Positions 15,011-32,000 of a stretch of DNA of 32,000 bases are shown here, one piece after another. The stretch lies in NCBI RefSeq assembly GCF_000012805.1, contig NC_007484.1:1440001-1472000 (forward strand), read 5' to 3'. The stretch's first letter is position 1, and each line of letters opens with the position of its first letter. The translations under genes were made by a program, and so were the position numbers. Under the pieces are notes generated by a model that was not told the origin of the DNA, did not search any database, and saw nothing but the letters and a program-made list of their open reading frames with translations. Origin of the DNA: Nitrosococcus oceani ATCC 19707. GTDB lineage: Bacteria; Pseudomonadota; Gammaproteobacteria; Nitrosococcales; Nitrosococcaceae.

Positions 15011-16108
15011 AATATTTTTAGCCGCGTTAATATCGCGGTCATGGACTGACTTACAGTCCGAGCAGGTCCACTGCCGCACTTTGAGCGGCATGGCTTTTTG
15101 CACTGCGCCACACGCCGAGCACGTTTTACTGGTCGGCGCCCACCTATCCACTTGCCTAAACGCCCGGCCATACCACGGGGCTTTGTATTCCAGTTGCCGC
15201 TTGAGTTCGTGCATGCCTACATCGCCCAAGGCTTTAGCGATGCGCCGGTTGGCCATCATGCCCCTGACGTTGAGCGTTTCCATGGCAATGAACCCCGCCT
15301 GGCGAATCAGTGCCGTGGTGAGTTTGTGCAACCAGTCCTGACGGGTGTTGCTCACCCTGGCGTGGGCCTTGGCGACCCTTACTCGCTGACGATGCCAGCG
15401 AACGCTTCCCTTGCGCTTGCGGGATAGCCTGCGCTGGGTTTTGGTGAGTAGACGCCGATAAGTGCGTAGGTGCCGTGGGTTGCCTGACTTCCAGCCCTCG
15501 GAGGTCACCACCACATCGCTTATACCCACATCAATACCGATACCGTTTGGCTTTCGCGGTAGGGGTTGGAGGGTTTCCTCGCACATGAACGAAACACAAT
15601 AACAACCCGCGCAGTCCTGGGTGACCGAGACCATTTTGGGTATACCCTGGGGCTTACGAGACCATTTTAAACTGAGTGCCCCAAGCTTGGGGAGTTTAAG
15701 CAACTTGCCCGCTCGATACCTTCCCGCTACCTGGCGTTGGTCAAGTTGATAGCGGATGCTTTGAGCGTGGGCTCTTTTTTTGAAACGGGGATACTTCGCT
15801 CGCCCTGCAAAGAAGTTTTTAAACGCGGTGTCCTGGTCTCTAAGCTTTTGATTGAGTGTGGTCGCGCTGGCCTCTTTTAACCAACCATAGGCCGCCGTCT
15901 TTTTTAGCTTGGTGAGGTGCCCGCTAAAGTCAACGCCGCTAACATGCTTGTCGTGCAGCCGGTATTGACGGCCACGCCAGGTCAGACAGGTGTTCCAGAC
16001 CCACCGGGCATGGCCAAACTCCATCGCGAGTTGCTGGCGCTGGACGCTCGTGGGGTAAAAGCGGAATGTATAGGACCGCTGAAGGGTGGTAGAATCGCAT
16101 TGGGTCAT
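14930..16108 (-). CDS. tnpB: RNA-guided endonuclease TnpB (RuvC triad and zinc finger intact)
   Basis: Typical N-terminus from ATG 16108 (MTQCDSTTLQRSYTFRFYPTSVQRQQL). RuvC residues are present in IGIDVGISD, IAMETLNVRGM and HDRDINAAKNI. The zinc finger reads CSACGAV...CSDC. The ORF-track start at 16300 is a TTG-initiated run through the IS left end. Confidence 0.9.
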   Translation of the reverse strand: MTQCDSTTLQRSYTFRFYPTSVQRQQLAMEFGHARWVWNTCLTWRGRQYRLHDKHVSGVDFSGHLTKLKKTAAYGWLKEASATTLNQKLRDQDTAFKNFFAGRAKYPRFKKRAHAQSIRYQLDQRQVAGRYRAGKLLKLPKLGALSLKWSRKPQGIPKMVSVTQDCAGCYCVSFMCEETLQPLPRKPNGIGIDVGISDVVVTSEGWKSGNPRHLRTYRRLLTKTQRRLSRKRKGSVRWHRQRVRVAKAHARVSNTRQDWLHKLTTALIRQAGFIAMETLNVRGMMANRRIAKALGDVGMHELKRQLEYKAPWYGRAFRQVDRWAPTSKTCSACGAVQKAMPLKVRQWTCSDCKSVHDRDINAAKNILRLATVGRTGSDARGGVHKPEVAYGC

Positions 16109-16289
16109 GGCCTCAATACTCGTCCTATTGGGTCGGTGGCAAGTGGCTAGGGGGTACTGATAATACTGCCTAGCCGCGCTTATTCTACCGCCAATTTTGC
16201 CCGCCGCAGACATCACTTTATGCGGCCCTCGCGATCGATGCGCCACTTCGTTTCGCACGCTCGCTGGGGGGGGTCGTCGTACATCCCTG

Positions 16290-16335
16290 TATTCCTTCAA
16301 CGTTTTTGTTTGAGTTGTTCTGCATATCAGGCTCC
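16290..16335 (-). other. Displaced original 5' end of the M48 gene (SD, ATG and 12 codons) on the far side of the IS
   Basis: The minus strand reads GGAG (16335..16332), a 6-nt spacer, then ATG 16325..16323, followed by CAG AAC AAC TCA AAC AAA AAC GTT GAA GGA ATA. This is in frame with CTT TTA AGC... at 14847 once the IS is removed. Confidence 0.5.
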
Positions 16336-16439
16336 GCGAAGCAGGTAAAAACTTGAATTTGATAAATACCTGCTCGATCTTCTATGTGTCAAGTCATCCC
16401 GGAGGTAATTTAAATGTCCTATTCTTAATAAGATATACT

Positions 16440-17084
16440 ATATTTTTGACTCAAGTACGAGCGTCACTCCGGGCAGCCGAAGGGTTAAGTAACCTGAATT
16501 TGCTGTTTCCCATGATTAGCGCGGTTTCTGAGTTGGAAGAAGCTCTACATATAGTGCGGCGGGCCTATGAAGGACTGGTAGAGGAAGGTGTTCGGGTTAC
16601 TTGGCCTCGGGTAGGGGTCATGATTGAGGTGCCTGCCGCGGTCTATCAGGTGGAAGCGTTGGCGCGGCGAGTGGATTTTCTTTCCATTGGCACTAACGAT
16701 CTTGCTCAATATCTGCTGGCGGTTGATCGCAGTAATGAGCGGGTGGCGGAATTATATCATTCCCTCCATCCGGCTGTTTTGGCCGCCATTCTCACAGTAG
16801 TGAAGGTGGCCCGCCGGCACCATAAGCCCGTTAGCGTGTGCGGCGAGATGGCGGGTGAGGCCACGGCGGCTATATTATTGCTGGGTATGGGGATAGATAA
16901 CCTCAGTCTGACCGCTGGCGATTTACCCCGAATCAAGTGGATAATAAGGAATTTTAGCCAGCAGTATGCGAGGGAATTGCTCGCTCGGGCCTTGCGGGAA
17001 GAAAAACCCGAGCCTATCCATAAAATGTTATGCCAGGCGCTTGATAGCCGAAGGTTAGGGGGTCTAGTACGGGTAGGAAAATGA
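16440..17084 (+). pseudogene. ptsP: 3' remnant (~214 codons) of ptsP, phosphoenolpyruvate-protein phosphotransferase EI-Ntr
   Basis: IFLTQVRASLRAAEGLSNLNLLFPMISAVSELEEA, DFLSIGTNDLAQYLLAVDRSNERVAELY and VSVCGEMAG are colinear with the last third of E. coli PtsP. The GAF, phospho-His and N-terminal PEP-binding parts are missing. The track start at 16353 is a TTG in unrelated AT-rich sequence. Confidence 0.8.
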
Positions 17085-17095
17085 GGTTGACTGAG

Positions 17096-17118
17096 TACCC
17101 TTGCTCGCAAGGTATTTT
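17096..17118 (+). terminator. Probable Rho-independent terminator after the ptsP remnant
   Basis: TACCCTTG-CTCG-CAAGGTA followed by TTTT; a 7-bp stem with one bulged C. Confidence 0.5.
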
Positions 17119-17188
17119 CGGAGGCCCTTGCAGCAGCAGAACGCGGCTATGGTCCAAGGGGTGGACCGATTACTGCTTCGGAGTTCTC

Positions 17189-17478
17189 CATGGATGGTGA
17201 ACGACCCCCCAGCGAGCGTGCGAAGTGAAATGGCGCATCGAGCGCGAGGGCCAGGTTACTTGCGTTTTGCCATGAATTCGCGCTATGATTTTCCCGTTGC
17301 CACAAGTGCGACCTATCCTCGGGAGGAGGAGAAGTGATGCGCGTGGAGGGTGATACCCAACCGAGGGCCTTGCGCGCTAAGTCGTGGCCAGCCCAAGGCA
17401 CCCATTGAAGCGCGAATTCTCCAGACTTGACAAGGTGAGGTGGGACCGAACCGCAGTCAGTCATGGCGAAACTCCAAT
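17189..17478 (+). mobile_element. tnpB-less IS200/IS605-family derivative (MITE/PATE-like), copy B, inverted relative to copy A
   Basis: Colinear with the reverse complement of 9081..9373. A 72-nt block (17332..17403) is identical to 9158..9229 and a further 20 nt (17405..17424) to 9137..9156. The 5' half is visibly more diverged. Confidence 0.75.
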
Positions 17479-17614
17479 TGTCTGTCACCGTGCTTCCTGG
17501 CACGCATCTTACGGATTTCTGGGGCCGCGCTCGGATCGGGGAAAGCTTGAAACGGAAGCCCGATAACTTCTATTTTTCCGTCTCACGCAATAAGGCCCAA
17601 GAGATTTTTCGCTG

Positions 17615-19758
17615 ATGATTCTTCCGGGATTAGAGTCCCTCTGGCAGAAGGCAGAGGACTCCACTCAGTTTATCAATTGGCTCGCCGAGAAGGTGCGCAC
17701 CAGGAATTGGGTGGCACTGCTCATGCTCTGCTTTGTGGCTGCTGCGGTCTTACTCAACCCCGTTTCAATCAAGGCGCTTTATCCTTGGCTGATGGGCCAG
17801 GAGCTGCCCGAGGATTTCTTGGACGGGTATCCGTGGGTTTATGGGGTGCTGTTGATCGCGCTTTTTTTGAGCGCCCTGATCCTTGCTATTCGAGCCAAGG
17901 CGCGCGAGCAGGAAATCTCACCCATTGATCTCAGCGAACGCAGCGCCGTCAAGGGCCTGTGGTCCTTCACCTATTAAGATGCCGACCTTTTTAAGCGTCT
18001 GGGACGAACCGACAGTCTGCGTAAATGCCTGGATAATGTCACCCACCCGGAATTTCGTTTCGGGGTCCTCTCTGGGGAGTCCGGCTGTGGCAAAACCTCT
18101 TTCCTTCAGGCCGGGCTCTGGCCCGGTCTGGAAAGCCGGGGCTTTCGTTGCCTCTACGTCAAATTAACCGAGCGCAACCCTCTTGCGGTCATTCGGCAGG
18201 CGTTGGCGCAACAGACAGAGATCCCACAAGCCCCGGTGAATGAGCTGGATGTCCCTGCCATTCTCGAGGCGGCCGCCGGCGGTGAGCCGGCGTCCTCCGA
18301 CAATAAGGGGGTCGTGCTGGTGCTTGATCAATTCGAGCAGTTTTTTGTCCACCAGCGCTACAAAGCCGACCGCCAACCGTTTCTGGAGGCTTTGGCCGCT
18401 TGGTACGGCCAATCCGGGCATCCCGTCCGGCTCCTGATCAGCATCTGCAAAGATTATGTGGGCCACCTGTATGAACTTCAGGAAGCCATGGGCTATTCGC
18501 TCGGCCCGAATGAAAGCTTCTATCTGGAGAAGTTCGAACCCCGGGAAGCCGCCAGCGTGTTGCGGGTGATGGCGAAAACCGAAGCTTTGGGGTTCGATGA
18601 AGAGTTTGCGCAAGAGCTCACCGCCCAGGAACTGGCCAGCCCCCGGGATGGATTGGTTTCCCCGGTCGATCTGCAAATTCTGACCTGGATGATCAAGGCC
18701 CAAAAAGGGGCCGAGCGAAAAGCCTTCGATCGTTCCACCTACCAAAAGCTCGGCGGGATCGAACAGCTGCTGGAGCGCTTCCTGCAACAGGTGCTCCAGG
18801 CGCGGGAAACCGAGGCGCGCCGACAGGCGGCGGTCAAGGTATTGCTGGCCTTGGTGGATCTGGAAAGCAGCACCCGGGCGGGAGTCCTGACGCTGAGCGA
18901 TCTTCAATGCAAGCTTTCCGGGTTATTGAGGGCTGAAGAGGCCAAGGAAGCCGTGCACTGGTTGTCGCGGGGGGACATCCGGCTGGTCACGGCCAGACAC
19001 CAGAAAAAGGAGCCGGGCTATGAACTGGCCCATGAACGTCTTATTCCCGCCTTGCGCCGACTGGCCGGCAAGACCTTGTCCGAGGCCGACAAAGCCAACC
19101 AACTCTTGGACCGGCGGGTCAACGAATGGATGGGGAATCAGCGCGCCGCGCGCTATCTGCTGCGTTGGCGGGAATTGAGGCTCATTCAAAAACAACACCC
19201 CTATTTGGTGTGGGGGAGCAAGCGAGCGCAAAAGGAAGTCTTGATTGCAAAGAGCCGACAGCGTCGAAACGGGGGGTTGGCAGCGGCCGGGATGATGGCG
19301 GTTATTGCCGTCTCCCTCACAACCCTTTATTACAGCGACCGAGGACAGATCTGGTTGATGGAGCGGGACTTGCGCCTCCTGGCGCAACAAACCAGAGACC
19401 CGGCACTGCTGAAAAAGAGCGCCCTGGCTTTTTTCGCCAGCAATCATGTTCAAAGGCTTTGGAGGTGGTGAAGCGTATTCGAAACCCGCAGGACAAAGCT
19501 CGTGCTTTGCAGGCGTTGGCCGAGGTGGCGCTGAAACTTGAGCAACCCGAGCAGGCCATAGCGCTGCTGGCGGAGCTGGCCAAAGCGGCCACCGGGATTG
19601 AGCGTTCCAAGTACAAAGCCGAAAGCTGGCGGCTGGCCCGTGAAATGGCGGATATGATTACGTCAGTTGATGGGCGTATTCAGGCGTTCTCCCAAATTCT
19701 TATGATTTGGGCGGAAAAAGAAGCTTTGCCTGCTGCTAAGAAAAAAGCGGCTTCTTAA
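17615..19758 (+). pseudogene. Membrane-anchored STAND-type P-loop NTPase, disrupted by an in-frame TAA at 17975..17977 and a frameshift near 19420..19460
   Basis: ORFs 17615..17977 and 18203..19471 share a frame. Reading through the stop gives ...AVKGLWSFTY*DADLFKRLGRTDSL...FRFGVLSGESGCGKTSFLQAGLWPGL (Walker A) and then VLVLDQFEQ (Walker B-like). The helical-repeat tail continues only in the frame of ORF 19126..19758. Confidence 0.75.
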
Positions 19759-19839
19759 AGTAAAGCCCTGATGTTGAGTCCCCGGTTTAACTGAAATTTG
19801 CATACCTCCATGTCTTTAAATGATCAGTCATTGACTCAA

Positions 19840-20112
19840 CCAGCTCCCTACTTCGGTAGGAGACGTTACTCGCGAATTCTGGCTGACGAGCTTATGTTAC
19901 CTCAGCCGGTAAAAATAGGCACTTCGGGCTGCATTCCCAGCTCCGAACACTGCTGCGCCAGGGGGTTAAACAGCACGGGTCGGGATAACGGGCAGTGCTC
20001 CCTCAAGGGATTGACCCGCAAGGGTGGGAGAAACCGGGAGATAACCGAGCGAGGGAACCTTAACTTGCGTAAGCGGTGGCTCGTAAGAGCAGGCGAAAGC
20101 CAACCCCACTTT
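19840..20112 (+). ncRNA. Candidate structured RNA, unclassified (tetraloop-rich, ORF-poor)
   Basis: On the + strand there are five hairpins capped by C-G-closed stable tetraloops: C(UUCG)G 19851..19856, C(GCAA)G 20017..20022, C(GUAA)G 20068..20073, C(GUAA)G 20082..20087 and C(GAAA)G 20094..20099. There is also a 9-bp bulged hairpin at 19923..19947. GUGG 20076..20079 can pair with CCAC 20106..20109 and enclose the last two hairpins. I recognise no known RNA family. Confidence 0.3.
19866..19907 (+). repeat. Fourth, isolated fragment resembling the MITE/IS right-end hairpin module
   Basis: CTCGCGAATTCT-GGCTGACGAG...CTCAGCC compares with copy A GCGCGAATTCTCCAGGCTGATGAG...CATCAGTC. The leader CGCGAATTCT and the GGCTGA/TCAGYC stem are the same. 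There is no matching terminal GGCGAAACTCCAAT. Confidence 0.45.
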
Positions 20113-20115
20113 CCG

Positions 20116-22767
20116 CTAGCCCAGGGCCTTTGTGGTAATCTCATAAACGTCTTTAGAAATCCGGGGTGAGTTAACGATGTGTTCTAATTGCTCCTTCATT
20201 ATTATTTGCCGGTTTTGATCATAACGCCGCCAGAGATTAAAAGTGCTGGCTAAACGGGCCGCAATTTGCGGGTTAAGCGGATCGAGTTTAAGAATATAAT
20301 CCCGAAGAAAACGGTAACCTTCACCGCTGGGATCATGAAAGCGAACTGGATTTCCCTGGCAGAAAGCGCCAATAAGGGCGCGGACTTTGTTAGGGTTAGT
20401 TAGCTTAAAAGCAGGATGCTGGGTGAGTTTTTTAACGATAGTAAGTGTATCCTGGCGCCGCGAGAGGGCTTGGAGAGAAAGCCATTTATCCATGACTAAA
20501 GAGTCGTTTTTCCATTGGTTATAAAAAGCTTGGAGAGCGATTTTTCTCTCAGAACTTTCGGTATCCGCGAGGCTAGAGAGAGCAGCAATGACATCGGTCA
20601 TATTGTCGGACTCGTTAAATTGCTGAAGGCAGCGGCTTTTAATGTCTGGCCCATCCAGCGTCATGAGATATTCAAGGCAGATATTGCGCAGCTTACGCCG
20701 GCCTATCTCTTCAGGAGAGGAGTGATAGGGACTAGTACCGGCTAGAGATTCGTAAGTGGTGGTAAAAGTACTGTGCAGGGCTTCAGCAAGGCCGCGCTGA
20801 AGGAAACGGCGCGCTTTATAAGCGGCCTCTGGATCGATGACTGTCATAAATTCAGCCAGATAATGCTCAGAGGGTAATGTTAGAATTTGAGCCACAAAGG
20901 CTTGGTCTGATTCGTCGCCCGCTAGGATTTTTTCAATCGTATTGGTAAAGGCAGGATCTAAAATAAGCGGCTTTCCTTGCTGGTGATCTTCCACCAGTCC
21001 CAGAAGAATTTTGATGGCCAGTTGTTGGCCTGCTTCCCAGCGATTGAAATGATCCTTGTCATGGACAAGAAGAAAACAGTATTCCTCATTGCTAAGGCCC
21101 AGATAAAGTTTGACTGGCGCTGAAAAACCACGTAATAGGGACGGCACCGGTTTACAAGGAATATCTTGAAAAACAAAGGTTTCTTCTGCTTGACGTAATT
21201 CGAGAACCCGGGTACCAGTAATTGCTTCCGCCTCTCCGGCAAGGCGTAGGGGCAGATCCCTTCCTTCCGCATCGAGCAAGCCGATAGCCAGGGGAATATG
21301 AAAAGGCGCCTTATGGGGTTGCTCCGGCGTAGGGGGACAGGTCTGTTTTACCTTAAGGGTGTAAGTAGACATTTCGGGATCATAAATGCGGCTAATCCGT
21401 AGTTCTGGCGTTCCCGCCTGACTATACCAAAGGCGGAACTGCGAAAAGTCAGTATTATTAGCGTCTTCCAAAGCTTGGACAAAATCGTCAGTGGTGACGG
21501 CCTGACCGTCGTGGCGTTTAAAATAAAGATCGGTCCCCTTGCGGAAGCCTTCTGTACCTAATAGACGGTAAAGCATGCGCACAACCTCGGCACCCTTCTC
21601 ATATATGGTTAGGGTATAGAAGTTATTGATTTCCACGTAGGACTCCGGTCGTATGGGATGGGCCATGGGCCCAGCATCTTCACGGAATTGATAGCTACGC
21701 AAGTGGTTGACAACTTGGATTCGCTTGACCGCGGATGAGCCCTGGTCAGCGCTGAATTGCTGATCGCGAAAGACCGTAAAGCCTTCTTTGAGGCTTAACT
21801 GGAACCAGTCCCGGCAAGTGACTCGGTTACCTGACCAATTATGAAAGTACTCATGGGCGATCACCGCCTCGATATTTTCATAATCCGTGTCGGTAGCCGT
21901 TTCCGGTTTAGCCAGTACATATTTGGAATTGAAGATATTAAGACCTTTATTTTCCATAGCGCCCATGTTGAAATCATCCACGGCAACGATCATGTAGATA
22001 TCCAGATCGTATTCCCGGCCATAGACCTGCTCATCCCATGCCATGGCCCGTTTGAGGGAGGCCATGGCATGGTCACATTGATCCTGGTTATGAGGTTGCA
22101 CATACATATGCAGTTGGATCTTACGGCCCGATAGAGTGATAAATTCATCCTCGATGCGGGCTAAATCGCTGGCCACCAAAGCAAATAAATAGGAGGGTTT
22201 GGGAAAAGGATCTTGCCATTTAGCAAAGTGGCGGCCAGTATCCCATTTGCCTTGAGCGATCAAGTTGCCATTGGAAAGCAGTATTGGGTATTTTTTCTCA
22301 TCCGCCACAATGGTGGTGGTGTAACGGGCCATCACATCGGGACGATCGAGGAAATAGGTAATACGGCGGAATCCCTCTGCTTCGCATTGAGTACAGAAAT
22401 TGCCACTCGAAGTATATAGTCCGGAGAGGGTGGTATTATCCTGAGGGTAAATGCGAGTCTCGATTTCCAGGGTAAAGCAATCCGGGACTTGGAGGAGGGT
22501 AAGCGATTCCGAGTCTTGATAATAATTCTTTTTACTTAAAACTTGGCCGTCCTGTTTAATTGAAAGTAATTCTAGCTCTTCACCATTCAGGACAAGGGAG
22601 GGGGAATCGGCCTTTGAGTGGCGGGAGAGTGCGAGCCGGGAATGGACCGTTGTGTGTTTTTCTCCGAGTTCAAAGTGCAGATCAATGGTTTCAATATAAT
22701 AGTCAGGCGCTTGGTAGTTCTTTAAATAAATAGTTGGAGGGGCTTTGGAGGGCTTAGTCTCTAGCAT
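20116..22767 (-). CDS. pepN: Aminopeptidase N (M1 family)
   Basis: 883 aa with the GAMEN motif (FNMGAMENKGLNIF) and the zinc site HEYFHNWSGNRVT...LSLKEGFT. The length and C-terminal ERAP-like domain are typical of PepN. Confidence 0.95.
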   Translation of the reverse strand: MLETKPSKAPPTIYLKNYQAPDYYIETIDLHFELGEKHTTVHSRLALSRHSKADSPSLVLNGEELELLSIKQDGQVLSKKNYYQDSESLTLLQVPDCFTLEIETRIYPQDNTTLSGLYTSSGNFCTQCEAEGFRRITYFLDRPDVMARYTTTIVADEKKYPILLSNGNLIAQGKWDTGRHFAKWQDPFPKPSYLFALVASDLARIEDEFITLSGRKIQLHMYVQPHNQDQCDHAMASLKRAMAWDEQVYGREYDLDIYMIVAVDDFNMGAMENKGLNIFNSKYVLAKPETATDTDYENIEAVIAHEYFHNWSGNRVTCRDWFQLSLKEGFTVFRDQQFSADQGSSAVKRIQVVNHLRSYQFREDAGPMAHPIRPESYVEINNFYTLTIYEKGAEVVRMLYRLLGTEGFRKGTDLYFKRHDGQAVTTDDFVQALEDANNTDFSQFRLWYSQAGTPELRISRIYDPEMSTYTLKVKQTCPPTPEQPHKAPFHIPLAIGLLDAEGRDLPLRLAGEAEAITGTRVLELRQAEETFVFQDIPCKPVPSLLRGFSAPVKLYLGLSNEEYCFLLVHDKDHFNRWEAGQQLAIKILLGLVEDHQQGKPLILDPAFTNTIEKILAGDESDQAFVAQILTLPSEHYLAEFMTVIDPEAAYKARRFLQRGLAEALHSTFTTTYESLAGTSPYHSSPEEIGRRKLRNICLEYLMTLDGPDIKSRCLQQFNESDNMTDVIAALSSLADTESSERKIALQAFYNQWKNDSLVMDKWLSLQALSRRQDTLTIVKKLTQHPAFKLTNPNKVRALIGAFCQGNPVRFHDPSGEGYRFLRDYILKLDPLNPQIAARLASTFNLWRRYDQNRQIIMKEQLEHIVNSPRISKDVYEITTKALG

Positions 22768-23272
22768 GAATTTTTCTCCTAAGCTTGTTCATAAAGAAGC
22801 AGTTATACTGCTGGACATAAGAAAGAAGGGGCAAGATAAAAAATCTTGGAGCAAGAGCGAATGGAAGTTATATCTAGTTTCTCTAAAATACCCCCTCTCC
22901 TGGACTTAATATCTGGATGTGCATGGTAGGCGCAAAGCCTAGAAGCTGAACAGCTTGGGGCTCTTAACTGTTTAATTAAATCTATGATTTTCTCTGAAAA
23001 TATCAGCTTTTGCCGCATCCTTGACATGCCTAAATCCTCGCGTTTATCAATGGCTTCGTGCTCTTGAGCACCGTCCCGACAGGCTACGGCGAGACGTTAA
23101 ATGCGCGCAAGAGTCATATAAGACCACGGTTTTAAAGCCGGGCAATGGCAGAGACGGCGCGAACGAACCTATGAGATTTTCATAGATTCTTAGTAGCGGT
23201 ATGCTCCTATTCCCTCCCAAGGCGAAGGGATAAAATAAGTATTTTCGCCTAGGTTAGAGAGGTTAAATAAAG

Positions 23273-24343
23273 TTACGTTAAGATATCTTTAACCGCAGCG
23301 AGAAATCGTTGCATGTCTTGTGCGGAAATGGCACCCATGGTGGATACCCGGAAAATTTTGGCTACTAATCCTCCTTGCCCAGCGTAGATGATGAAACCTT
23401 GCTGTTTGAGTTCATCGTGTAATGTTTCATAGCCAATATCTGACGGCAAATGATAGGATCGCAGGACGCAAGACGACGATCCAGGGGGTAACAATGGTTT
23501 GATACCCATTTGCCTGAGTCCATCGGCAACTAAATCAGCTAAGTGGCGATAGTGTTCTCCTCGGGCCTGCCAACCGCCAGCGTCGGTCAATTCATGCAAG
23601 GCTTCCGATAGAGCATAAAAACATTGGATGGCCGGCGTGAAGGGGGTATTTCGCCGATCCTGCTCTTGGCAGTAGGTTGCTAAATTTAGATATAGGCTGC
23701 GGCAGGGAGGAGGTGTGGGCAAGCTATCCCGGCGTATTATGACAAACGCGGCACCTGGCGCGCCGTGCAAACATTTATTAGCGGTAGCCGCTAAAGCACT
23801 GATTTCCCATTCTTCGAAGGCCAGAGCCTCAGCACCAAAGCTGCTGACGCCATCGGTTAGCAATTGGGCATTGTACCGGCGACAAAGTGCGCCAATTGCC
23901 GCCAGATCATTGAGTCGTCCGGTAGTGGTTTCGTGATGGACGGCAGCCACGTGGGTAATATCCGTCTCCTCCGCGAGCATTTGCTCTAGTTGCGGGATAT
24001 CAATTTCGGCCCCCCAGCTATGGCGCAGGGCGGTATGAGGGATGCCATGAATCTGAGCAATTTTAGCGAGCCGCTCTCCATAGACCCCGTTTTCAATAAC
24101 TAACAGTTTTCCTCGATCCGGAACCAGGCTGCTTATCATGGCTTCCATGGCGGCGGTGCCGGAGCCACTTAGCAGTACGGCCGCCCAACGCCCAGGATCA
24201 AGATCATAGATAGCCAACAGCCGCTCCCGGATCTGGTCTTGCAAATCGGCAAACTCTGTTTCCCGGTGGCAGAGATCGGGCTGCAGTAAAGCTGCTCGGA
24301 CTCGTTCACTAAGATTAACCGGACCTGGATTGAGTAAAATCAT
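23273..24343 (-). CDS. phnW: 2-aminoethylphosphonate--pyruvate transaminase
   Basis: 356 aa class-V aminotransferase. N-terminus ILLNPGPVNLSERVR; PLP-lysine region TANKCLHGAPGAAFVI. The start overlaps the stop of the phosphonopyruvate decarboxylase gene (ATGA). Confidence 0.88.
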   Translation of the reverse strand: MILLNPGPVNLSERVRAALLQPDLCHRETEFADLQDQIRERLLAIYDLDPGRWAAVLLSGSGTAAMEAMISSLVPDRGKLLVIENGVYGERLAKIAQIHGIPHTALRHSWGAEIDIPQLEQMLAEETDITHVAAVHHETTTGRLNDLAAIGALCRRYNAQLLTDGVSSFGAEALAFEEWEISALAATANKCLHGAPGAAFVIIRRDSLPTPPPCRSLYLNLATYCQEQDRRNTPFTPAIQCFYALSEALHELTDAGGWQARGEHYRHLADLVADGLRQMGIKPLLPPGSSSCVLRSYHLPSDIGYETLHDELKQQGFIIYAGQGGLVAKIFRVSTMGAISAQDMQRFLAAVKDILT

Positions 24344-25494
24344 GGAATCCTCTTTAAGTGGGCCATTAACCGGGCTTTAATCTCCGGTGGAGTTAAGGGG
24401 GGACGGGGCAGATCCGCGGGAGCGCCCGGGCGTATTTTAAGCTGGGCAAAACGGGGACCGTTAGAATCTGGAGCCGTAAACAACTCATCCAGTAAGGATG
24501 GGGTGTTTCCTTCCAGGGACAAGGAGTAACCGCAGGCCTTCGCCACCTGGGCAAAGGAGAAATTGTTGGAAACCGTCGCCTGGGCTCCTGTGGAATCATG
24601 AACTTCATTGTCCAGAAGAACATGGATTAAATTAGGGCCGCCGTAGGTACCCACCGTTGCCAAATTGCCCATACGCATCAAGGCGGCGCCATCACCATCA
24701 ATGACCACCACCCGTAAATCTGGACGGGCCAGGGAGAGCCCTAGGCCCAATGAGGAGGCACAGCCCATGGAGCCCACCATATAAATCTGATTAGGGCGAT
24801 CCTCAAGGGCGCATAATTCCCGGCCAGTGTAGCCTGTGGTGGCAATGACCACGGTATTTTTTTCCGGCGTTCGGGAAAGCAGATCAGCTAAAGCCTCGGA
24901 GCGGGAGCAGAGAGAACCGGCCTGGTAATAGCGATGTAATTCGTTATTTTGATGGGTAGCGCGCTTGAGAATTTTACTGCCACTTGCCCCATAGGGGGCC
25001 ACGGAATTCTTGCGCATAATAAAGGCGTAAGGACGTTCAGCCTGTTGCATGTATTGGTGGGCCCGTTCCAAGGCTGAGTGGATTTGCTTGCTTTCCAAGG
25101 GAAAATACTCCCAGGGAATTTCCATGGCTTCCAGCAGTGAGCCGGTAATTTGGCCCATGAGTTCATGCTGGGGTTCATCTCGAAGCGTTGGGTCTCCTCT
25201 CAGGGTAATGATGAGAAGTATCGGGATGTGAAAGGTATGGGTCAGGGAGGTCAGTGGATTAACGGCGTTACCGAGACCAGAATTCTGCATCATAGCAATA
25301 GCTGGTTGCCCACCTAAATAGGCGCCCGCAGCCAGAGCAACGGCATCACCTTCATTAGCCGAGGAAACATACGTTAAATCGTTGCGCTCGATAACATAGT
25401 TAATAAAAGGAGTGAGGAAGGAGCAGGGAACGCCTCCGTAACAGCCAAACCCGCCTTCGCGAGCACTGTCGATAAACTCATGGGCTTCTATCAT
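24340..25494 (-). CDS. aepY: Phosphonopyruvate decarboxylase (thiamine-diphosphate dependent)
   Basis: ThDP motif VIDGDGAALMRMGNLATVG and N-terminal GVPCSFLTPF. I prefer ATG 25494 (AGGA 6 nt upstream, just after the pepM stop at 25505) to the track start at 25524, which overlaps pepM by 20 nt. Confidence 0.88.
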   Translation of the reverse strand: MIEAHEFIDSAREGGFGCYGGVPCSFLTPFINYVIERNDLTYVSSANEGDAVALAAGAYLGGQPAIAMMQNSGLGNAVNPLTSLTHTFHIPILLIITLRGDPTLRDEPQHELMGQITGSLLEAMEIPWEYFPLESKQIHSALERAHQYMQQAERPYAFIMRKNSVAPYGASGSKILKRATHQNNELHRYYQAGSLCSRSEALADLLSRTPEKNTVVIATTGYTGRELCALEDRPNQIYMVGSMGCASSLGLGLSLARPDLRVVVIDGDGAALMRMGNLATVGTYGGPNLIHVLLDNEVHDSTGAQATVSNNFSFAQVAKACGYSLSLEGNTPSLLDELFTAPDSNGPRFAQLKIRPGAPADLPRPPLTPPEIKARLMAHLKRIP

Positions 25495-25504
25495 GGGAAT
25501 CCTA

Positions 25505-27175
25505 TTATTGATGACCGTGGGCAAAGTCGCCGGCGCGGGTTAGATCCTCCATGTCATTTACATCCAGCCAATGGCCGTTAATGTAGAGAACCTTAATTGG
25601 GTGGCCGTTGGCGACCAGATGATTGAATAAATCGGGCATTGCAAGTTGGGAAAAATTCTCTTGTTGCCGTAATGCTTGGAGGGCATCGAGCAGCCATTGG
25701 CGTCCTTCACCCGCGACTCGGGCCATGCCGATCCAGCGACCGTGGGGCTGTTTACTGAGCTGCTTTTTTTGCGTTTCAATACGAAGGAGGTCTACATCCT
25801 GGCGGAACAAGGAACGGTCATCCGGCTGGGAGCAGAAAGCCACATCCCGGATATCATCCTTCATGCCAGGAGAAAGGGCAGAATCCACAACGACAACAAT
25901 GTTTCCTGGCACGTGGCGCAAATCATTTAGGATATAGCTGCGGAACAGCAGGTCGCCATAGGTGATGATGGTATCCTCGGATAAGCTCTCAAGGGCACAG
26001 GCAAGGGAAGATAACTCACTGCTATGGCCGTAATCTGGGTTATGAATGAGGGAAATAGCCTTGACATCAATGGCTTCTGGTTTATAACCAGTCACTACCG
26101 TGATGCGATTAACGTGCTGTCGTTTAAATTCGTCTACTAGGCGGCGTAGCAGTGGGATGCCGGCCACCGGCAGCATGACTTTGGGACGATCCTGAGTCAG
26201 GCTTTCTAGTCCTTTGCCCCGGGTAGCCCCCAGCACAATCGCTCCCGTCTCGGCCTCTGGGGAAGCGCCGTAACGGCGTTCAGCAGCCAGTAATTCCTCG
26301 GCCCCTTGGAGGCGGAAAATTTCACTGACCGGTGCAACCTGATCCTCGATGTTAACTAGGGTTTGCGTATCATGGATTTCCCGCGCCACTTGAGCCATTG
26401 CGGCCGCAGCGGCCCGAATTAAATGATTAGCCCAAATGACGGTGCTGATGCCCGCCTTGCGGAATACTTCGGTGGGCGTACTGTAGTATTTAGTGGGGAC
26501 AATAATGAGTGGTGCCCGGTTTCCCCATTCTCTGGCGAAGGCTAGGATCTCATCGGCTTGGGAAAGTTTACTGTGGATTAATATGGCATCCGCCCCAGCC
26601 CGATGGTAAGCTTCTGCGCGGCGTAAGGCTTCATCCAGCCCCCAGCCCGCGATTAAAGCCTCGACTCGTGCCACGATGGAGAAATCGGGATCACTTTGAG
26701 AATCTTTCCCAGCCTTGATCTTGCCGCAAAATTCGTCCACTTCAGCTAAAGGCTGGCGTTCACCGCCAATAAAACTGTTAGTTTTAGGGAAAACTTTATC
26801 TTCGATACAAACGCCGGCAATTTCCCGCTGCTCTAGCTTTCTCACTAGCCGGCGCAAGTTATTAAAATTTCCATATCCCGTATCGCCATCCAGGAGAATG
26901 GGAATAGTGGTGGTGTCGGACATAAACTCTAGCATATCCACTATTTGGGTCCAGCTAGCCTCGTTATTGTCTCTGACTCCAAACTGGGAAGAAATTGCCA
27001 GACCACTGGCCCAAACTCCCTTAAATCCGGCTTCTTCGGCAATCCGGGCGCTAAGGCCATTGTGGGCTTCTAGCAGAAATTCTGTGGGTTCGGATTTCAG
27101 TAAAGCCCGTAATTGGGCAAACTTTGAAGGCCGACGTTTAAAAGTTCCAGCCGTGGGTAAGGGTACAGTGCTCAT
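25505..27175 (-). CDS. aepX: Phosphoenolpyruvate mutase fused to a C-terminal LicC-like nucleotidyltransferase domain
   Basis: The N-terminal ~290 aa carry PepM/isocitrate-lyase-superfamily motifs ([39 protein letters not shown]). The C-terminal ~250 aa align to LicC-type nucleotidyltransferases ([37 protein letters not shown]). Confidence 0.9.
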
Positions 27176-27208
27176 ATATCAGGGTTAATATTTTTAGTGT
27201 TAAAAATT

Positions 27209-28000
27209 TTAAATTTTAGCTCTTGGCACGGGTGAATCTAGGAACCGCAATTGGGGCAAAATGAGATTTTTAGCCTGCTGAATATCCCCTGGAAAGTCAA
27301 TTTCTATCCAGGGTAATCCAGTGATATCCTCGATCCCAAAGCGCTCTGGCGTTGCTAGCAGCAGATCCCGCAGGGCCTCTTCATGGGGCGCTTCTTGGCG
27401 TGATTGATCGATATAGTTTTGACACCTATCAGCGAGCCGGGAGGCCATTGCTTCCGAGAAACGAAAGAAGCCCACCGACTCGCCTATGGTATCGTAGTGC
27501 AGTCCTGCTGGAATCTGTTTACGAAATTCCACCAGAAGCCCCTCCCGAAGGCAGAGCTTGACCGGCTCCTCGCCAGGTTCGAAGTCGCGGTCAAGCAGAA
27601 AGCAATTCCTGTGGGGGGATTGCAGGAGGCGTTGCCCTAGGCGGTAGTCATAGAGCACATCCGCATCCATCAATAGAACCTCTCCCCCGGCACGGAGTTG
27701 ATCCCGCAAGGACCAGAGGCTGACGATGCTGCCCGCATTAAAATCAGCATTATATACGGTTTGAGGGCGAGGAAGGAATGCCAACCTATCGAGCGCCTGT
27801 TCTACCTGTTCGGCCTGATACCCGGTTGCAATGGCAACATTTTGAACCCCTAATTGGGAAAGGATGAGGAGATGGCGCTCAAGTAGACTGCGGCCGTCGA
27901 ACTCCAGCAGGCATTTGGGTTGGTTGTGGTGATTGGTAAGGCGTTTACCGCGACCGGCGGCTAGGATAAGGGCACGCATGGCTTGCTGATATCCCCTCAT
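27209..28000 (-). CDS. LicC-family nucleotidyltransferase (candidate phosphonate/phosphocholine cytidylyltransferase, PntC-like)
   Basis: Signature MRALILAAGRGKRL...PKCLL, and ...WIEIDFPGD near the C-terminus as in LicC. ATG 28000 abuts the hpnG stop. The internal ATG 27979 (MRALILAAG) is an equally plausible start. Confidence 0.8.
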   Translation of the reverse strand: MRGYQQAMRALILAAGRGKRLTNHHNQPKCLLEFDGRSLLERHLLILSQLGVQNVAIATGYQAEQVEQALDRLAFLPRPQTVYNADFNAGSIVSLWSLRDQLRAGGEVLLMDADVLYDYRLGQRLLQSPHRNCFLLDRDFEPGEEPVKLCLREGLLVEFRKQIPAGLHYDTIGESVGFFRFSEAMASRLADRCQNYIDQSRQEAPHEEALRDLLLATPERFGIEDITGLPWIEIDFPGDIQQAKNLILPQLRFLDSPVPRAKI

Positions 28001-28771
28001 TTATGGGATTAGGAGGGTAGGGCTTATTCTTGCCGTTACCGCCCGTAAAGTGGTCCTTGCAGCCTGAAAGTGTCTTGCAAGCTGCCATAAATCAAGCGCT
28101 TCCCAGGGCCGCTTAAGCAGGTTTGCCAGCAAGGCGAATAGCTGTAATTGTCCCTGACTATTCAGGGCCTTTAGGGCTGATGGGGGCAAGGCAGTTGGAG
28201 CCGGATCGGCTATCGCCCGGATCACCAGAAATGGGACGCCGGCGCTGGCTGCCGCTTTGCCCACAGCCGCACTTTCCATATCCACCGCCACACAGCCTGT
28301 TTGTCGATAAAGACGAGTTTTTTCCTCTGGCGAGGAGAGGATAGTTTCTGTGTGTTGGAGGGGAGCATTGGATAAGGGTAATTTTCCTTCCAATTGCTCT
28401 AAGAGAGATTGCAGCCAATAGGGATCAGTGCCGTATTGCTCTCCACTGAGGAGGCGTACCTGCTCTGGCAGAAGTAAAACTCCTGACTCCAGGTGAGGCG
28501 CCAGGCCGCCAGCGACTCCCCAGCTAATTAAGGCTTTAGCACCTGCTGATAATAGGTCTTCGGCAGCCCGGCGGGCCCGTTCAGGGCCGATACCGGAAAG
28601 CTGCAAATGAAGTGAGTCCGCCAAAGCAATCTTATCGCCGGGGCGCAGCCGCTGTTTGGCGAGGCAGCCGCCTTCCGCTGGTAAGGCGGCCACCACGCCG
28701 GTCCCCATGAACGATAAGGGCAGCGCTGCAGTCGTTTGGCGGGCTGCTTTGCTAGCGTTTGTGATCAACAC
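28001..28771 (-). CDS. hpnG: Hopanoid-associated phosphorylase/nucleosidase HpnG (PNP/MTAN family)
   Basis: 256 aa with GIGPERA...LISWGVAGGL...CVAVDMESAAV...FLVIRAIADPA, the PNP_UDP fold in the position typical for hpnG directly after shc. The start overlaps the shc stop by 7 nt. Confidence 0.8.
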   Translation of the reverse strand: MLITNASKAARQTTAALPLSFMGTGVVAALPAEGGCLAKQRLRPGDKIALADSLHLQLSGIGPERARRAAEDLLSAGAKALISWGVAGGLAPHLESGVLLLPEQVRLLSGEQYGTDPYWLQSLLEQLEGKLPLSNAPLQHTETILSSPEEKTRLYRQTGCVAVDMESAAVGKAAASAGVPFLVIRAIADPAPTALPPSALKALNSQGQLQLFALLANLLKRPWEALDLWQLARHFQAARTTLRAVTARISPTLLIP

Positions 28772-30744
28772 TGCCGATTAAGATGGTTGCGATAGCGGGC
28801 GAGGGCCCATAGGGGGAAAAACTTATCATAACCATGGTATTTAAGGTAAAACACGCGGGGAAAGCCGGGAGCATTAAAGGCTGGATGGTCCCACAGCCCA
28901 TCTTCTTGCTGGATCTGCAGGAGATAGGCAATGCCTTTTTTAACGGCCTCGCTATTGGCTTCCCCTACGGCCATGAGGGCAAGCAGGGCCCAGGCGGTAT
29001 GAACAGGCGTGCTTTCCTGATAGCGGCCAGCAAGAGAAGAATCGAAATAAGAATAGTTGTCTTCACCCCAGCCCCCATCTAAACGCTGAACTTGTTTTAG
29101 CCACTCAACGGCCTTCCGAATAAATCCTTCTTGGGGGTCGATGTTTGCCTGTTCCAAGGCGGTCAGGGCTGACCAGGTCCCATAAATATAATTGGTGCCC
29201 CAACGACCAAACCAGGAGCCATTAGGCTCTTGCTCCCGGCGCAGATAATCTAGGGCGCGCTGCAGAGTTTCCGCATATTGGGGTTTATTTAAACGGCCTA
29301 GCAATACGATGCAGCGAGCAGTAACATCCGCAGTGGGAGGATCGAGCAGCGCCCCATGATCGGCAAAGGGGATTTCATTTAGATAATAATGCGTATTATC
29401 TGATTCGAAAGCAGCAAATCCTCCATTGCGAGATTGCATTCCGCAGAGCCAATCGCAGGCTCGCCCTATAGCTTCCCCGTAGCGCTCCGGGGTTGCGGCT
29501 TGATCCATGCTCCAAGCTACGAGGGCCGTATCGTCGAGATCAGGATAGTAGCTATTGTTATACTGAAAAGCCCAGCCTCCCCCTTTAAGGTTAGGGTGTT
29601 GTACTTGCCAATCTCCAGACTGTTCCAGGATTTGCCGCTCCTTGAGCCAATCGAGGGCGCGGATGACTGGCGCTGTGGTATGTCCGCCCTCGGTTTCCTG
29701 GAGGGCCAGAGCGGCTAAACCCGTATCCCAAATTGGGGATAGGCAGGGTTGGCAGGAAGCGGAGTTCTTCTCTTCTATCACCAGATTCTGAAGTGCCTTT
29801 TTAGCCTGAACCCGCCAAGGATGATCCGGGCTATAACCTAGCAAAATCAAGGATTCGTGGGCATTGACCATGGCGGGAAAAATACCTCCGAGACCATCCT
29901 CCCCATTTAAGCGCTCGGTAAACCAGGTTTCTGCTTTTTTGAGGGCGCGGCGCCTGAGCATCGAGGGAATTAATGGCTCCAACAAACGGGCCGTGCGTTC
30001 CACCGAAAGCAAAATTTTGTTGAGGCGGGAGCGTACCGGAAAATAGTGCCGTTCCTGCTCTGGTGGAACAGTGAATAACTCTTGGATATGCACATTCCGG
30101 GGATTTTGGGCCTGCGCCTTAAGGCTGTAAAGAATAGCCAGAGGAACCATAACTGTCCGCGACCAATAGGAGACTTTGCTCAAATGGAAGGGAAACCAAC
30201 GGGGCAGAAGCATGATTTCCACGGGAATAAAAGGAACTCCACGCCAGGGAATCTGGCTAAACATGGCCAAGGCAAGGCGGGTGAAAACGTTAGCGCGGGC
30301 ACCGCCGCCCTGGGCGAGAATGGCCTCGCGGGCCCGGCGCATGTGGGGCGCATTGGGATCATCCCCGACCAATTTTAGGGCGTAGTAGACTTTCACTGAA
30401 CAGCTAATGTCCAAATCGCCCCCTTCGTACAGGGGCCAGCCCCCATGGCTGGCTTGCTTAGCACGCAAGCGAGCGGCGAGTTTACGCTCGATTTCAGGTT
30501 CCAGCTCGCCCGTGAAGTGGGTCCAGAGAATATACTCAGCAGGGATGGTGCAATCTGCTTCCAGCATAAAGCACCAATGACCATCCGCTTGCTGGAGTTT
30601 GAGTAAAGCATCCCGGGCAGCGGTGATGGCCCCACTGATCTCTCTAGGGTGGGTATCTTGGCCTGAAGTTTCAGTTGCTGGTGAAGCGGCGGCAATACCT
30701 ATGGCGCCAGCCGATTCCGGAGCTTGTCGAAGTGCGCGGGTCAT
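28765..30744 (-). CDS. shc: Squalene-hopene cyclase
   Basis: 659 aa with the catalytic motif YYPDLDDTALV, repeated QW motifs (e.g. NGSWFGRWG, DGGWGE), and GGWAFQ. Confidence 0.95.
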   Translation of the reverse strand: MTRALRQAPESAGAIGIAAASPATETSGQDTHPREISGAITAARDALLKLQQADGHWCFMLEADCTIPAEYILWTHFTGELEPEIERKLAARLRAKQASHGGWPLYEGGDLDISCSVKVYYALKLVGDDPNAPHMRRAREAILAQGGGARANVFTRLALAMFSQIPWRGVPFIPVEIMLLPRWFPFHLSKVSYWSRTVMVPLAILYSLKAQAQNPRNVHIQELFTVPPEQERHYFPVRSRLNKILLSVERTARLLEPLIPSMLRRRALKKAETWFTERLNGEDGLGGIFPAMVNAHESLILLGYSPDHPWRVQAKKALQNLVIEEKNSASCQPCLSPIWDTGLAALALQETEGGHTTAPVIRALDWLKERQILEQSGDWQVQHPNLKGGGWAFQYNNSYYPDLDDTALVAWSMDQAATPERYGEAIGRACDWLCGMQSRNGGFAAFESDNTHYYLNEIPFADHGALLDPPTADVTARCIVLLGRLNKPQYAETLQRALDYLRREQEPNGSWFGRWGTNYIYGTWSALTALEQANIDPQEGFIRKAVEWLKQVQRLDGGWGEDNYSYFDSSLAGRYQESTPVHTAWALLALMAVGEANSEAVKKGIAYLLQIQQEDGLWDHPAFNAPGFPRVFYLKYHGYDKFFPLWALARYRNHLNRQC

Positions 30745-30780
30745 AATGTGATCCCCTTGGGTTTATTAATTCCATGAAGC

Positions 30781-31881
30781 CTATTTCTCTGGCGACGCTT
30801 GCGGCATAGATGTTTGTTTACTGTCGTTGCTATTTACCTTTAGTGGTATAAAAGGTACACCTTTTGACGCAAGATTAAACAGGAATGTTAATACCTTATC
30901 GTGATTTGCTGCAATACTTGTTAAGAGTATTGTTGTTTTTACGCTACGGCGGGAGATCTTGACTTGCCAGCTAGCCGAAAAATTCCGACGCCGATGAAGT
31001 TTGCGCAATGTCAGCATGGCAAGGCCAATAGCCCATAGACAAAAACGCCGGATACCTCCTTCTTCCGGGGGAATGAGTAGGGTATAGGTTAAGGCGTTGC
31101 GGAGATGGGCATGGGTGACGCCAATGAGGTGTTGGAGACCATCGCCAAAGGCAGATTGATAGTGGCCGGGCTCAAGGTTATCCAAATTAAAGCCTGCTTG
31201 TTCGAAGACGGTGCGCGGCAGCCAGCAAATCCGCCTTTTTCTATCGTCCCAGATGTCCTTGAGGATGTTGGTCATCTGCAAACCCTGGCCAAAAGAGACC
31301 ATGAGATTGCGTAGAGCTTCACGGTTGCGGTTGATCCCAGGAGAGTAATCACAGAAAAGTTCCGTCAGCATTTCGCCGACGACGCCGGCGACAAAGTAGC
31401 AATATTGGTCCATGGCCTCCATATCGGCTAGGCCTCGTAAGCTGGCGGTATTCTGAAAGCGAGGCATACCGTCGCACATAATGCATACACAGCGTTCCAA
31501 GGCAGCTCGTTGGCGGGGGTTGAAGCTGTAAGTGATCCGGAGAATCCGTGGCGCATTTTGAATAAGTTCCCGTTCGGCAGCTAGGGTATGCTCCGATAGG
31601 AGAGGGTATAGGGAGCAGGCAAAAGATTCAGCCGAGGTTTGCCCCGCGACTACGGTAACGAAAAGGTTGGAAAAGTATTTTTTCTGGGCGATGCTGAGGG
31701 TGGGTTCATCCTCAATGGTATCGGCTATGCGGCACAGGAGATAGCCATTGGCTACCACCTCTTGCAAGGGGGGAGGGAGTTGGGGAATAGTGAGGGCAAA
31801 GGTACGGGAGACGCCAGGAAGAATATAATCCTGGTAGTTTTTATCAGCTGAATCGTAACTAGTATGATAAGAGCCCATCAT
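30781..31881 (-). CDS. sqs: Squalene synthase (farnesyl-diphosphate farnesyltransferase, eukaryote-like Sqs type rather than HpnC/HpnD)
   Basis: 366 aa with VSRTFALTI, Asp-rich motif 1 as CRIADTIEDE (the DTxED form seen in Sqs), motif 2 as TNILKDIWDDRKRRICWLP, and a hydrophobic C-terminal region. Confidence 0.8.
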   Translation of the reverse strand: MMGSYHTSYDSADKNYQDYILPGVSRTFALTIPQLPPPLQEVVANGYLLCRIADTIEDEPTLSIAQKKYFSNLFVTVVAGQTSAESFACSLYPLLSEHTLAAERELIQNAPRILRITYSFNPRQRAALERCVCIMCDGMPRFQNTASLRGLADMEAMDQYCYFVAGVVGEMLTELFCDYSPGINRNREALRNLMVSFGQGLQMTNILKDIWDDRKRRICWLPRTVFEQAGFNLDNLEPGHYQSAFGDGLQHLIGVTHAHLRNALTYTLLIPPEEGGIRRFCLWAIGLAMLTLRKLHRRRNFSASWQVKISRRSVKTTILLTSIAANHDKVLTFLFNLASKGVPFIPLKVNSNDSKQTSMPQASPEK

Positions 31882-32000
31882 TATTTACAAGGAGGCGCTA
31901 TTATTTTCCTGGTTGTTAAGGACGTGTTGAGAAATGTGGTTACGTGTTCCGAAGCTTAATATTACCGGAATGGCAAGGGTAAGTCTCCATGGAGGGTATA

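Follow-up and report, generated by a model that had tools for sequence, protein, structure and literature searches.

The largest family of Ppm (phosphoenolpyruvate, PEP, mutase) gene neighbourhoods in RefSeq is the 'Burkholderiales_CDP-OH' group, whose seven-gene core was described by Li & Horsman 2022; its product, predicted to be a 1-hydroxy-2-aminoethylphosphonate (1-hydroxy-AEP) lipid, 'has not been characterized' (PMC8942020). Li & Horsman regard this group as identical to Group 1 of the phosphonolipids in Yu et al. 2013 (PMC8942020). Here, we analyse a 32,000-nt stretch of the Nitrosococcus oceani ATCC 19707 chromosome (NC_007484.1, positions 1,440,001 to 1,472,000; hereafter, the window), in which a string of seven minus-strand genes joins a hopanoid half (sqs-shc-hpnG) to a phosphonate cassette composed of a stand-alone nucleotidyltransferase gene, a fusion of PEP mutase with a second nucleotidyltransferase domain (pepM), ppd and phnW. 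With Group 1 (PMC8942020), N. oceani shares the Ppm::PF12804 fusion, Ppd, the AEP transaminase and the second, stand-alone PntC-like enzyme in the same order, the corresponding proteins being 50-66% identical. The N. oceani locus thus has four of the seven Group 1 core genes, while the α-ketoglutarate (αKG) oxygenase, the CDP-alcohol transferase and the LPG-synthase/HpnL protein are missing at the locus; unlike in Group 1, the cassette is joined directly to sqs-shc-hpnG. Judged by sequence comparison, the Nitrosococcus genes are a reduced form of the Group 1 core.

Several other described systems resemble this locus in part. The Pnt pathway of Treponema denticola and Atopobium rimae follows a common logic, in which AEP synthesis is followed by CMP activation by a PF12804 enzyme, and the Pnt clusters also hold one fused and one free nucleotidyltransferase, as does N. 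oceani (PMC6697681). However, the Pnt clusters sit with LicD-type and glycan genes, whereas the N. oceani genes sit with hopanoid genes. The 1-hydroxy-2-aminoethylphosphonate sphingophosphonolipid of Bacteriovorax stolpii bears an AEP-type head group made by a Ppm/Ppd/AEPT cluster containing a Ppm-PF12804 fusion, as found here, but it has a sphingolipid anchor and belongs to GCF 761 without hopanoid genes (cited in PMC8942020). The hopanoid clusters with hpnI, hpnJ and hpnK (bacteriohopanetetrol glucosamine and cyclitol ether) likewise combine Shc, HpnG and squalene synthesis with polar head-group genes, and the phosphonate module of Nostocales comes directly after hpnJ-hpnK-hpnI; in contrast to hpnI/J/K, the N. 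oceani head-group module would make a C-P compound, and hpnH, hpnA, hpnB and hpnN are not found at its locus. To our knowledge, none of the known hopanoid head groups contains phosphorus. An antiSMASH 'phosphonate-terpene' cluster was reported in all N. oceani strains (PMC7285500) and in Pandoraea (PMC5987411), and a survey of Acetobacteraceae proposed 'an undiscovered terpene-phosphonate' (PMC8776678); both the Nitrosococcus juxtaposition and the 'phosphonoterpene' idea had already been published in passing (2020, 2022). New here are the extent of the linkage across phyla, the recognition of Nitrosococcus as carrying a reduced Group 1 core, HpnL as a core member and the location of the transferase orthologue in Nitrosococcaceae.

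All seven open reading frames (ORFs) that the original prediction, made from the sequence alone, had placed head to tail on the minus strand are present at the positions it gave, and every junction was read (Table 1). The sqs and shc genes are separated by 36 nt, the shc stop overlaps the hpnG GTG start (28771) by 7 nt, the stand-alone nucleotidyltransferase gene and the pepM fusion lie 33 nt apart, a 10-nt spacer separates the end of the fusion (25505) from the ppd ATG (25494, in agreement with the 384-aa gene call), and the ppd stop and phnW start overlap as ATGA. The nucleotidyltransferase gene had been predicted to abut hpnG at 28000, which holds for the ORF, whose ATG 28000 directly follows the hpnG TAA at 28003-28001; however, its true start is probably the second ATG, at 27979, giving a 256-aa protein as in N. 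watsonii. That start leaves a 21-nt spacer with GAGGGG after hpnG, so that the genes would not abut. Similarly, hpnG may start at ATG 28708 (the 235-aa call in strain C-27) instead of the overlapping GTG 28771. The operon-like packing is unaffected by either alternative. A terminator and promoter separating hpnG from the nucleotidyltransferase gene, named beforehand as a finding that would speak for separate transcripts, have neither space nor signal there: a promoter/terminator consensus scan of 22500-32000 gave counts at the shuffled-sequence background, with none at the junctions. The stretch of about 500 nt without a convincing ORF described downstream of phnW extends over 505 nt, up to pepN, and contains neither a convincing terminator nor a remnant of the gene for an RRM-type RNA-binding protein that N. 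halophilus carries there; an Rfam scan of the whole window returned no match. All seven proteins are 100% identical in strain AFC27 (scaffold DS995300.1) and in a contig of strain C-27.

The string is not confined to N. oceani. The order sqs-shc-hpnG-nucleotidyltransferase-pepM fusion-ppd-phnW-pepN is also found in N. halophilus, in Candidatus Nitrosacidococcus tergens, with no more than 56% identity to N. oceani in the nucleotidyltransferase, and in one metagenomic relative, with spacers of 4-20 nt between hpnG and the nucleotidyltransferase gene and with variable flanks upstream of sqs. Absence of the linkage from every relative had been named as grounds for abandoning the original prediction; since the string is kept across these Nitrosococcaceae, those grounds are lacking. 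Beyond the family, the linkage recurs in other arrangements in Nostocales, Burkholderiales, other Gammaproteobacteria, Acetobacteraceae and a metagenome-assembled genome (MAG) of Planctomycetota.

To assess the cassette across bacteria, one genome per species was scanned with an alignment of the stand-alone nucleotidyltransferase, which yielded 80 species-level loci, and the flanking ORFs were clustered. The cassette was kept in 80/80 loci, always with the stand-alone nucleotidyltransferase gene first, followed by the pepM fusion, ppd and phnW. The same gene order was seen with tblastn in Nostocales and other cyanobacteria, Burkholderiales (Pandoraea, Trinickia, Caballeronia, Cupriavidus and Ralstonia), many gammaproteobacterial MAGs (gamma-MAGs) and Planctomycetota, the stand-alone nucleotidyltransferase being 50-61% identical to the same-position gene product in Burkholderiales, Nostocales and gamma-MAG loci. 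ORF clustering revealed three recurrent accessory families, namely a CDP-alcohol phosphotransferase, a 2-oxoglutarate (2OG)/Fe(II) oxygenase and an LPG-synthase-TM protein, which make up the rest of the 'seven-gene core' of the 'Burkholderiales_CDP-OH' group. The first of these (CDP-OH_P_transf) has about 200 aa and the catalytic motif D-x2-DG-x2-AR...G-x3-D-x3-D, and the CDP-inositol-using DIPPS domain is among the curated families nearest to it.

Past the seven-gene core, all recurrent neighbours in the 80 loci are isoprenoid or hopanoid genes, and no glycerolipid or sphingolipid gene recurs near the cassette. The neighbours comprise HpnA (TIGR03466, 508 bits), HpnH (TIGR03470, 564 bits), HpnJ (807 bits), HpnI (339 bits), HpnK (275 bits), HpnM (211 bits), HpnN (TIGR03480, 965 bits), HpnB (369 bits, slightly below cutoff) and Dxs (887 bits); genes for Shc, Sqs, HpnG-like proteins and MlaA likewise recur. 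At least one bona fide hopanoid gene lies within 10 kb of the cassette in 27/80 loci from Nostocales, Beta- and Gammaproteobacteria and Planctomycetota (9/28 cyanobacterial, 6/20 betaproteobacterial and 11/29 gammaproteobacterial or other), and in 15/43 of the loci flanked by at least 9 kb on each side. By a rough estimate, a random 20-kb window would touch a hopanoid locus in 1-2% of cases, as compared with the approximately 35% observed. The hopanoid-linked loci are dispersed over the nucleotidyltransferase tree and form no single clade. Nor is the arrangement uniform: Nostocales show hpnJ-hpnK-hpnI-transferase-oxygenase-cassette, or the cassette followed by hpnH-hpnA; gamma-MAGs show sqs-shc-hpnG-(PhyH)-hpnN-transferase-hpnA-hpnL-oxygenase-cassette-dxs-hpnH-hpnB-hpnM-mlaA; and Pandoraea shows cassette-dxs-hpnN. 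The independent RefSeq annotation of cultured strains agrees: Roseomonas marmotae plasmid p1318-3 carries the cassette between hpnN/polyprenyl synthetase and ispH-hpnH-hpnG-shc-hpnE-hpnD-hpnC-GT (glycosyltransferase)-hpnA, with the LPG-synthase gene between aepY and the transaminase gene, and on pBRH01 of Mycetohabitans rhizoxinica, dxs, hpnN, ispH, hpnH, hpnA, a glycosyltransferase gene and shc come after the seven-gene core. In several loci, hpnG and the cassette flank the gene of a PhyH-family protein, the nearest relatives of which are PhnY*-type phosphonate hydroxylases (198 bits, sub-cutoff); in one locus (L008), the transferase gene and that of a PhnY*-like phosphonate hydroxylase have an HpnG-like gene between them. 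Taken as a whole, a functional link of the cassette with hopanoid metabolism is well supported by comparative genomics. We also observed that in the USC-gamma atmospheric-methane oxidisers (L074, Chromatiales bacterium USCg_Taylor; L070 and L071) the cassette adjoins hpnN, hpnA and an HpnL paralogue, in line with the exceptional abundance of phosphonate gene clusters reported for the USC-gamma order UBA7966 (PMC8692599).

The LPG-synthase-type gene directly upstream of the nucleotidyltransferase gene encodes a true HpnL, as 10/10 plus-strand cases scored 309-366 bits on TIGR03476 (cutoff 196), and HpnL is the immediate upstream neighbour of the nucleotidyltransferase in 22/80 loci. HpnL is a core member of the Group 1 phosphonate cluster. 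The phosphonate literature classes this LPG-synthase/HpnL gene, one of two such genes in the core, as 'phospholipid biosynthesis' (PMC8942020), and hopanoid papers from 2025 list HpnL as having an unknown function, with phosphonates unmentioned (PMC12324291, PMC12583986). At eight gamma-MAG loci (L042, L057, L058, L060, L066, L070, L071 and L074), a second, minus-strand LPG-synthase-TM paralogue replaces the plus-strand HpnL; with 170 bits, the sole copy scored (L057, 8075-9088) fell short of the HpnL cutoff of 196.

The gene assignments of the original prediction proved right, with five of the seven proteins above the trusted cutoffs of curated models and the others recognized by PF00494 and PF12804; Sqs additionally scored 97 bits on TIGR01559, under its cutoff. 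Among the proteins of a hopanoid cluster, Shc and HpnG are both encoded at the N. oceani locus with model scores above cutoff. In the phosphonate half, PEP mutase carries the Ppm-specific EDKxxxxxNS motif at residue 125 and matches the solved Mytilus enzyme (PDB 1m1b) with 422 bits, while the PF12804 domain of the fusion (residues 313-430) has LicC (1jyk) as its best solved relative. Among solved structures, T. denticola PntC (6pd1) comes closest to the stand-alone nucleotidyltransferase, with a full-length but weak match (E 1.4e-7, 34 bits); the best NCBIfam match of the stand-alone enzyme is the IPCT domain, the counterpart of DIPPS. The stand-alone and the fused domain are only 27% identical over 136 residues, which rules them out as recent duplicates; they are therefore old paralogues, probably with different substrates. 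A phosphocholine (Lic) role was rejected given the lack of lic genes: neither LicA choline kinase, LicB transporter nor LicD transferase is encoded among the genes of the window or the 80 related loci, and the RefSeq name 'phosphocholine cytidylyltransferase family' is a family label only. A catabolic role of the transaminase was likewise ruled out, since it exceeds the cutoff of the biosynthetic PhnW-AepZ model and follows PepM and Ppd, with no phosphonatase gene present. Up to AEP, the gene functions are very probably as assigned.

The genes that complete the Group 1 set elsewhere were sought in the window with tblastn, with no hit for the CDP-OH transferase, HpnL, 2OG oxygenase, HpnA/B/H/I/J/K/M/N, Dxs, PhyH or MlaA. 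The original prediction had placed the coupling transferase outside the window, which agrees with the failure of the CDP-OH transferase representatives to find it there, and it had pointed beyond position 32000 for HpnH or a transferase of the CDP-alcohol type; neither occurs in the 6 kb past sqs, nor do the oxygenase and HpnL, and these 6 kb hold two unannotated proteins, AhpC, Slp, a fatty-acid hydroxylase and a GNAT. HpnH, the adenosyl-hopene transferase required for any C35 side chain, may be encoded elsewhere in the N. oceani genome, for which a second terpene cluster has been mentioned (PMC7285500). N. wardiae, Nitrosacidococcus tergens and metagenomic relatives encode orthologues of the transferase at a conserved locus linked to ubiD. 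In these Nitrosococcaceae (L090, 10001-10594; L091, 10001-10612; L092; L093), the gene is solitary, always follows ubiD, usually precedes a PilZ gene and lies hundreds of kilobases away from the phosphonate genes.

Sqs produces squalene, Shc cyclises squalene to hopene and HpnG takes the adenine off adenosylhopane. By family membership, the N. oceani enzymes would catalyse the first two steps, HpnG would process adenosylhopane from an HpnH encoded elsewhere, and PepM, Ppd and the transaminase would convert PEP via phosphonopyruvate and phosphonoacetaldehyde to AEP. One or both PF12804 nucleotidyltransferases may then convert AEP to CMP-AEP, by analogy with PntC (PMC6697681), and a CDP-alcohol-family enzyme, encoded beside the cassette in most other lineages and linked to ubiD in N. 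wardiae and Nitrosacidococcus, would move the aminoethylphosphonyl group from CMP-AEP onto a membrane-lipid hydroxyl. Where other lineages encode a 2OG or PhnY*-like oxygenase, the head group is probably hydroxylated as well, with HpnL and HpnN likely to deal with the product. The likeliest acceptor would be an extended hopanoid (bacteriohopanetetrol or a polyol derived from ribosylhopane), and the product a hopanoid with a phosphonate head; this acceptor is favoured by synteny, given the interleaving of hopanoid genes with the core and the lack of recurrent acyl-lipid genes. In a bolder variant, HpnG could give a ribose-1-phosphate-type hopanoid; activation by the stand-alone nucleotidyltransferase could turn this hopanoid itself into the CDP-alcohol donor, with hydroxy-AEP in the role of acceptor.

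Given these data, we explain the seven genes as a conserved operon-like unit of Nitrosococcaceae that joins the hopanoid core to the supply of a phosphonolipid head group, and we assign this explanation as a whole a probability of roughly 0.45. That AEP and the hopanoid are covalently conjugated is a tentative suggestion, somewhat short of even odds. Similarly tentative is the general proposal that Group 1/CDP-OH clusters make AEP- or 1-hydroxy-AEP-capped hopanoids, not a glycerophosphonolipid, with HpnL acting in the pathway and the Nitrosococcus string as its most compact form. A number of observations weigh against these ideas. In 53/80 loci, there is no hopanoid gene within 10 kb of the cassette, and in Burkholderia cenocepacia, the replicon of which was mapped by tblastn, there is none in the 15-kb flanks; the linkage is therefore frequent, not universal. 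The transferase, oxygenase and HpnL were not found at the N. oceani locus, and a search with the N. wardiae transferase as the query gave 120 matches, down to 53% identity, none of which was named N. oceani, N. watsonii or N. halophilus; a Logan contig 80% identical to the transferase came from an unrelated sample. The substrates proposed for the nucleotidyltransferases rest on weak similarity. Glu196 of Tde-PntC, a contact of the AEP amine, corresponds to E207, which does not vary in alignment A1, but the counterpart of Glu104 is Asp112, as in LicC; this pattern fits an amine-bearing phospho or phosphono substrate and does not fix the specificity. Additionally, diacylglycerol needs no dedicated genes, so that synteny is blind to it as an acceptor. 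We found no report of a phosphorus-containing hopanoid or of the product of a Group 1 cluster in the open-access papers searched, and we know of none from the extensive surveys of bacteriohopanepolyols in Burkholderia, Nostoc and nitrifiers. Acetylation and atmospheric-pressure chemical ionization methods could, however, miss a zwitterionic phosphonate.

The phosphonate literature predicts an acyl phosphonolipid for Group 1, and AEP or 1-hydroxy-AEP could accordingly be carried by diacylglycerol or a similar lipid, the proximity of hopanoid genes then reflecting a shared programme of outer-membrane remodelling or trafficking (HpnN, HpnM, MlaA) and no covalent link. Such a product is in keeping with the transferase, whose nearest curated families are phosphatidylinositol-phosphate-type synthases, with the many cassette loci that have no hopanoid gene nearby and with the presence of the transport genes for MlaA, HpnM and HpnN among the cassette neighbours. 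Yet the conserved neighbours past the core are exclusively isoprenoid/hopanoid, an HpnG-like gene stands among the core genes in L008, the cassette sits in the middle of an hpn cluster in Roseomonas, and HpnL is hopanoid-associated in Alphaproteobacteria too, whose hpn clusters were not noted to have phosphonate genes nearby (PMC12583986). Since, moreover, a phosphonolipid of this kind has never been isolated from the cassette-bearing groups (PMC8942020), we consider an acyl-lipid product rather unlikely. Decoration of a glycan, lipopolysaccharide or protein by CMP-AEP (a phosphonoglycan, as in Bacteroides and Treponema), with the hopanoid vicinity as general envelope co-regulation or inherited order, appears improbable: no LicD, glycosyltransferase or polysaccharide genes recur beside the cassette, and its conserved partner is a membrane enzyme of the CDP-alcohol phosphotransferase family together with HpnL. 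It is true that the characterised PntC systems go with LicD-type transferases and glycans (PMC6697681), and that N. oceani has no lipid-type transferase at the locus and possibly none at all.

The adjacency in Nitrosococcus might also be accidental, if a gamma-type cluster lost its middle genes and left hpnG beside the cassette. Indeed, gamma-MAG loci contain 2-6 kb extra between hpnG and the nucleotidyltransferase gene (PhyH, HpnN, CDP-OH transferase, HpnA, HpnL, 2OG) with nothing of this there in Nitrosococcaceae, and the transferase is encoded at the distant ubiD locus in N. wardiae and Nitrosacidococcus. Persistence of the compact string at protein identities as low as 56%, its spacers being 0-21 nt, along with at least five arrangements of the hopanoid linkage across phyla, at a frequency far above the estimated random expectation, makes an accident very improbable indeed.

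Table 1. Genes of the hopanoid-phosphonate string and features on its pepN side in the N. oceani window.
Feature	Position	Strand	Evidence or remark
sqs (single-enzyme, eukaryote-type squalene synthase)	30781..31881	-	PF00494 SQS_PSY 191 bits; first gene of the string
shc (squalene-hopene cyclase)	28765..30744	-	TIGR01507 835 bits, cutoff 431; both cyclase Pfam domains
hpnG (hopanoid-associated nucleoside phosphorylase)	28001..28771	-	TIGR03468 260 bits, cutoff 187
Stand-alone LicC/PntC-type nucleotidyltransferase	27209..28000	-	PF12804 52 bits
PEP mutase::PF12804 nucleotidyltransferase fusion (Ppm::PntC type)	25505..27175	-	TIGR02320 409 bits, cutoff 320
ppd (phosphonopyruvate decarboxylase)	24340..25494	-	TIGR03297 492 bits, cutoff 313
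AEP aminotransferase (phnW; PhnW-AepZ type)	23273..24343	-	TIGR03301 495 bits, cutoff 361; last gene of the string
Non-coding gap phnW/pepN	22768..23272	.	505 nt, no ORF, no Rfam match
nSTAND1 NTPase	18203-19471		pepN/M48 stretch, with small unannotated ORFs
243-aa fragment	16353-17084		pepN/M48 stretch; only positions 117-290 of a PEP-utilising enzyme domain
IS605 OrfB/TnpB gene	14930-16300	-	pepN/M48 stretch

The surroundings of the string contain some further features. Divergent from sqs, just past the window (L001, 4920-5828), lies a gene for a 302-aa multi-pass membrane protein with no Pfam match, an orthologue of which, at 65% identity, occupies the corresponding place in N. halophilus, whereas in Nitrosacidococcus this place is taken by a DUF6655 protein. 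The membrane protein may belong with the cluster as a partner not recognised so far. At 3-5 kb past sqs (L001, 1376-3135), a GNAT of the Acetyltransf_5/FeeM N-acyl-amino-acid-synthase type adjoins the fatty-acid hydroxylase, a pair reminiscent of the OlsB/OlsE aminolipid genes, and there may thus be a third membrane-lipid function near the hopanoid/phosphonate string. On the other side, approximately 5 kb between pepN and an M48 peptidase gene (14930-20100) are present in N. oceani and absent from N. halophilus and Nitrosacidococcus; with a GC content of up to 0.55-0.60, against about 0.48-0.52 nearby, this stretch looks like an inserted island.

If AEP is indeed carried by hopanoids, hopanoids would have their first head group with phosphorus and phosphonolipids their first terpenoid member, and a product would be assigned to the most abundant family of bacterial phosphonate clusters, which is found in Burkholderia pathogens, Nostoc symbionts and marine nitrifiers. 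HpnL would gain a function, and an overlooked biological source of C-P compounds, possibly with a new class of biomarkers for nitrifiers and cyanobacteria, would come to light. Even if co-regulation is all that connects the two lipids, their conserved linkage places phosphonolipid and hopanoid synthesis in a single envelope programme. Two questions thereby become directly testable, namely what the commonest phosphonate cluster produces and what HpnL does.

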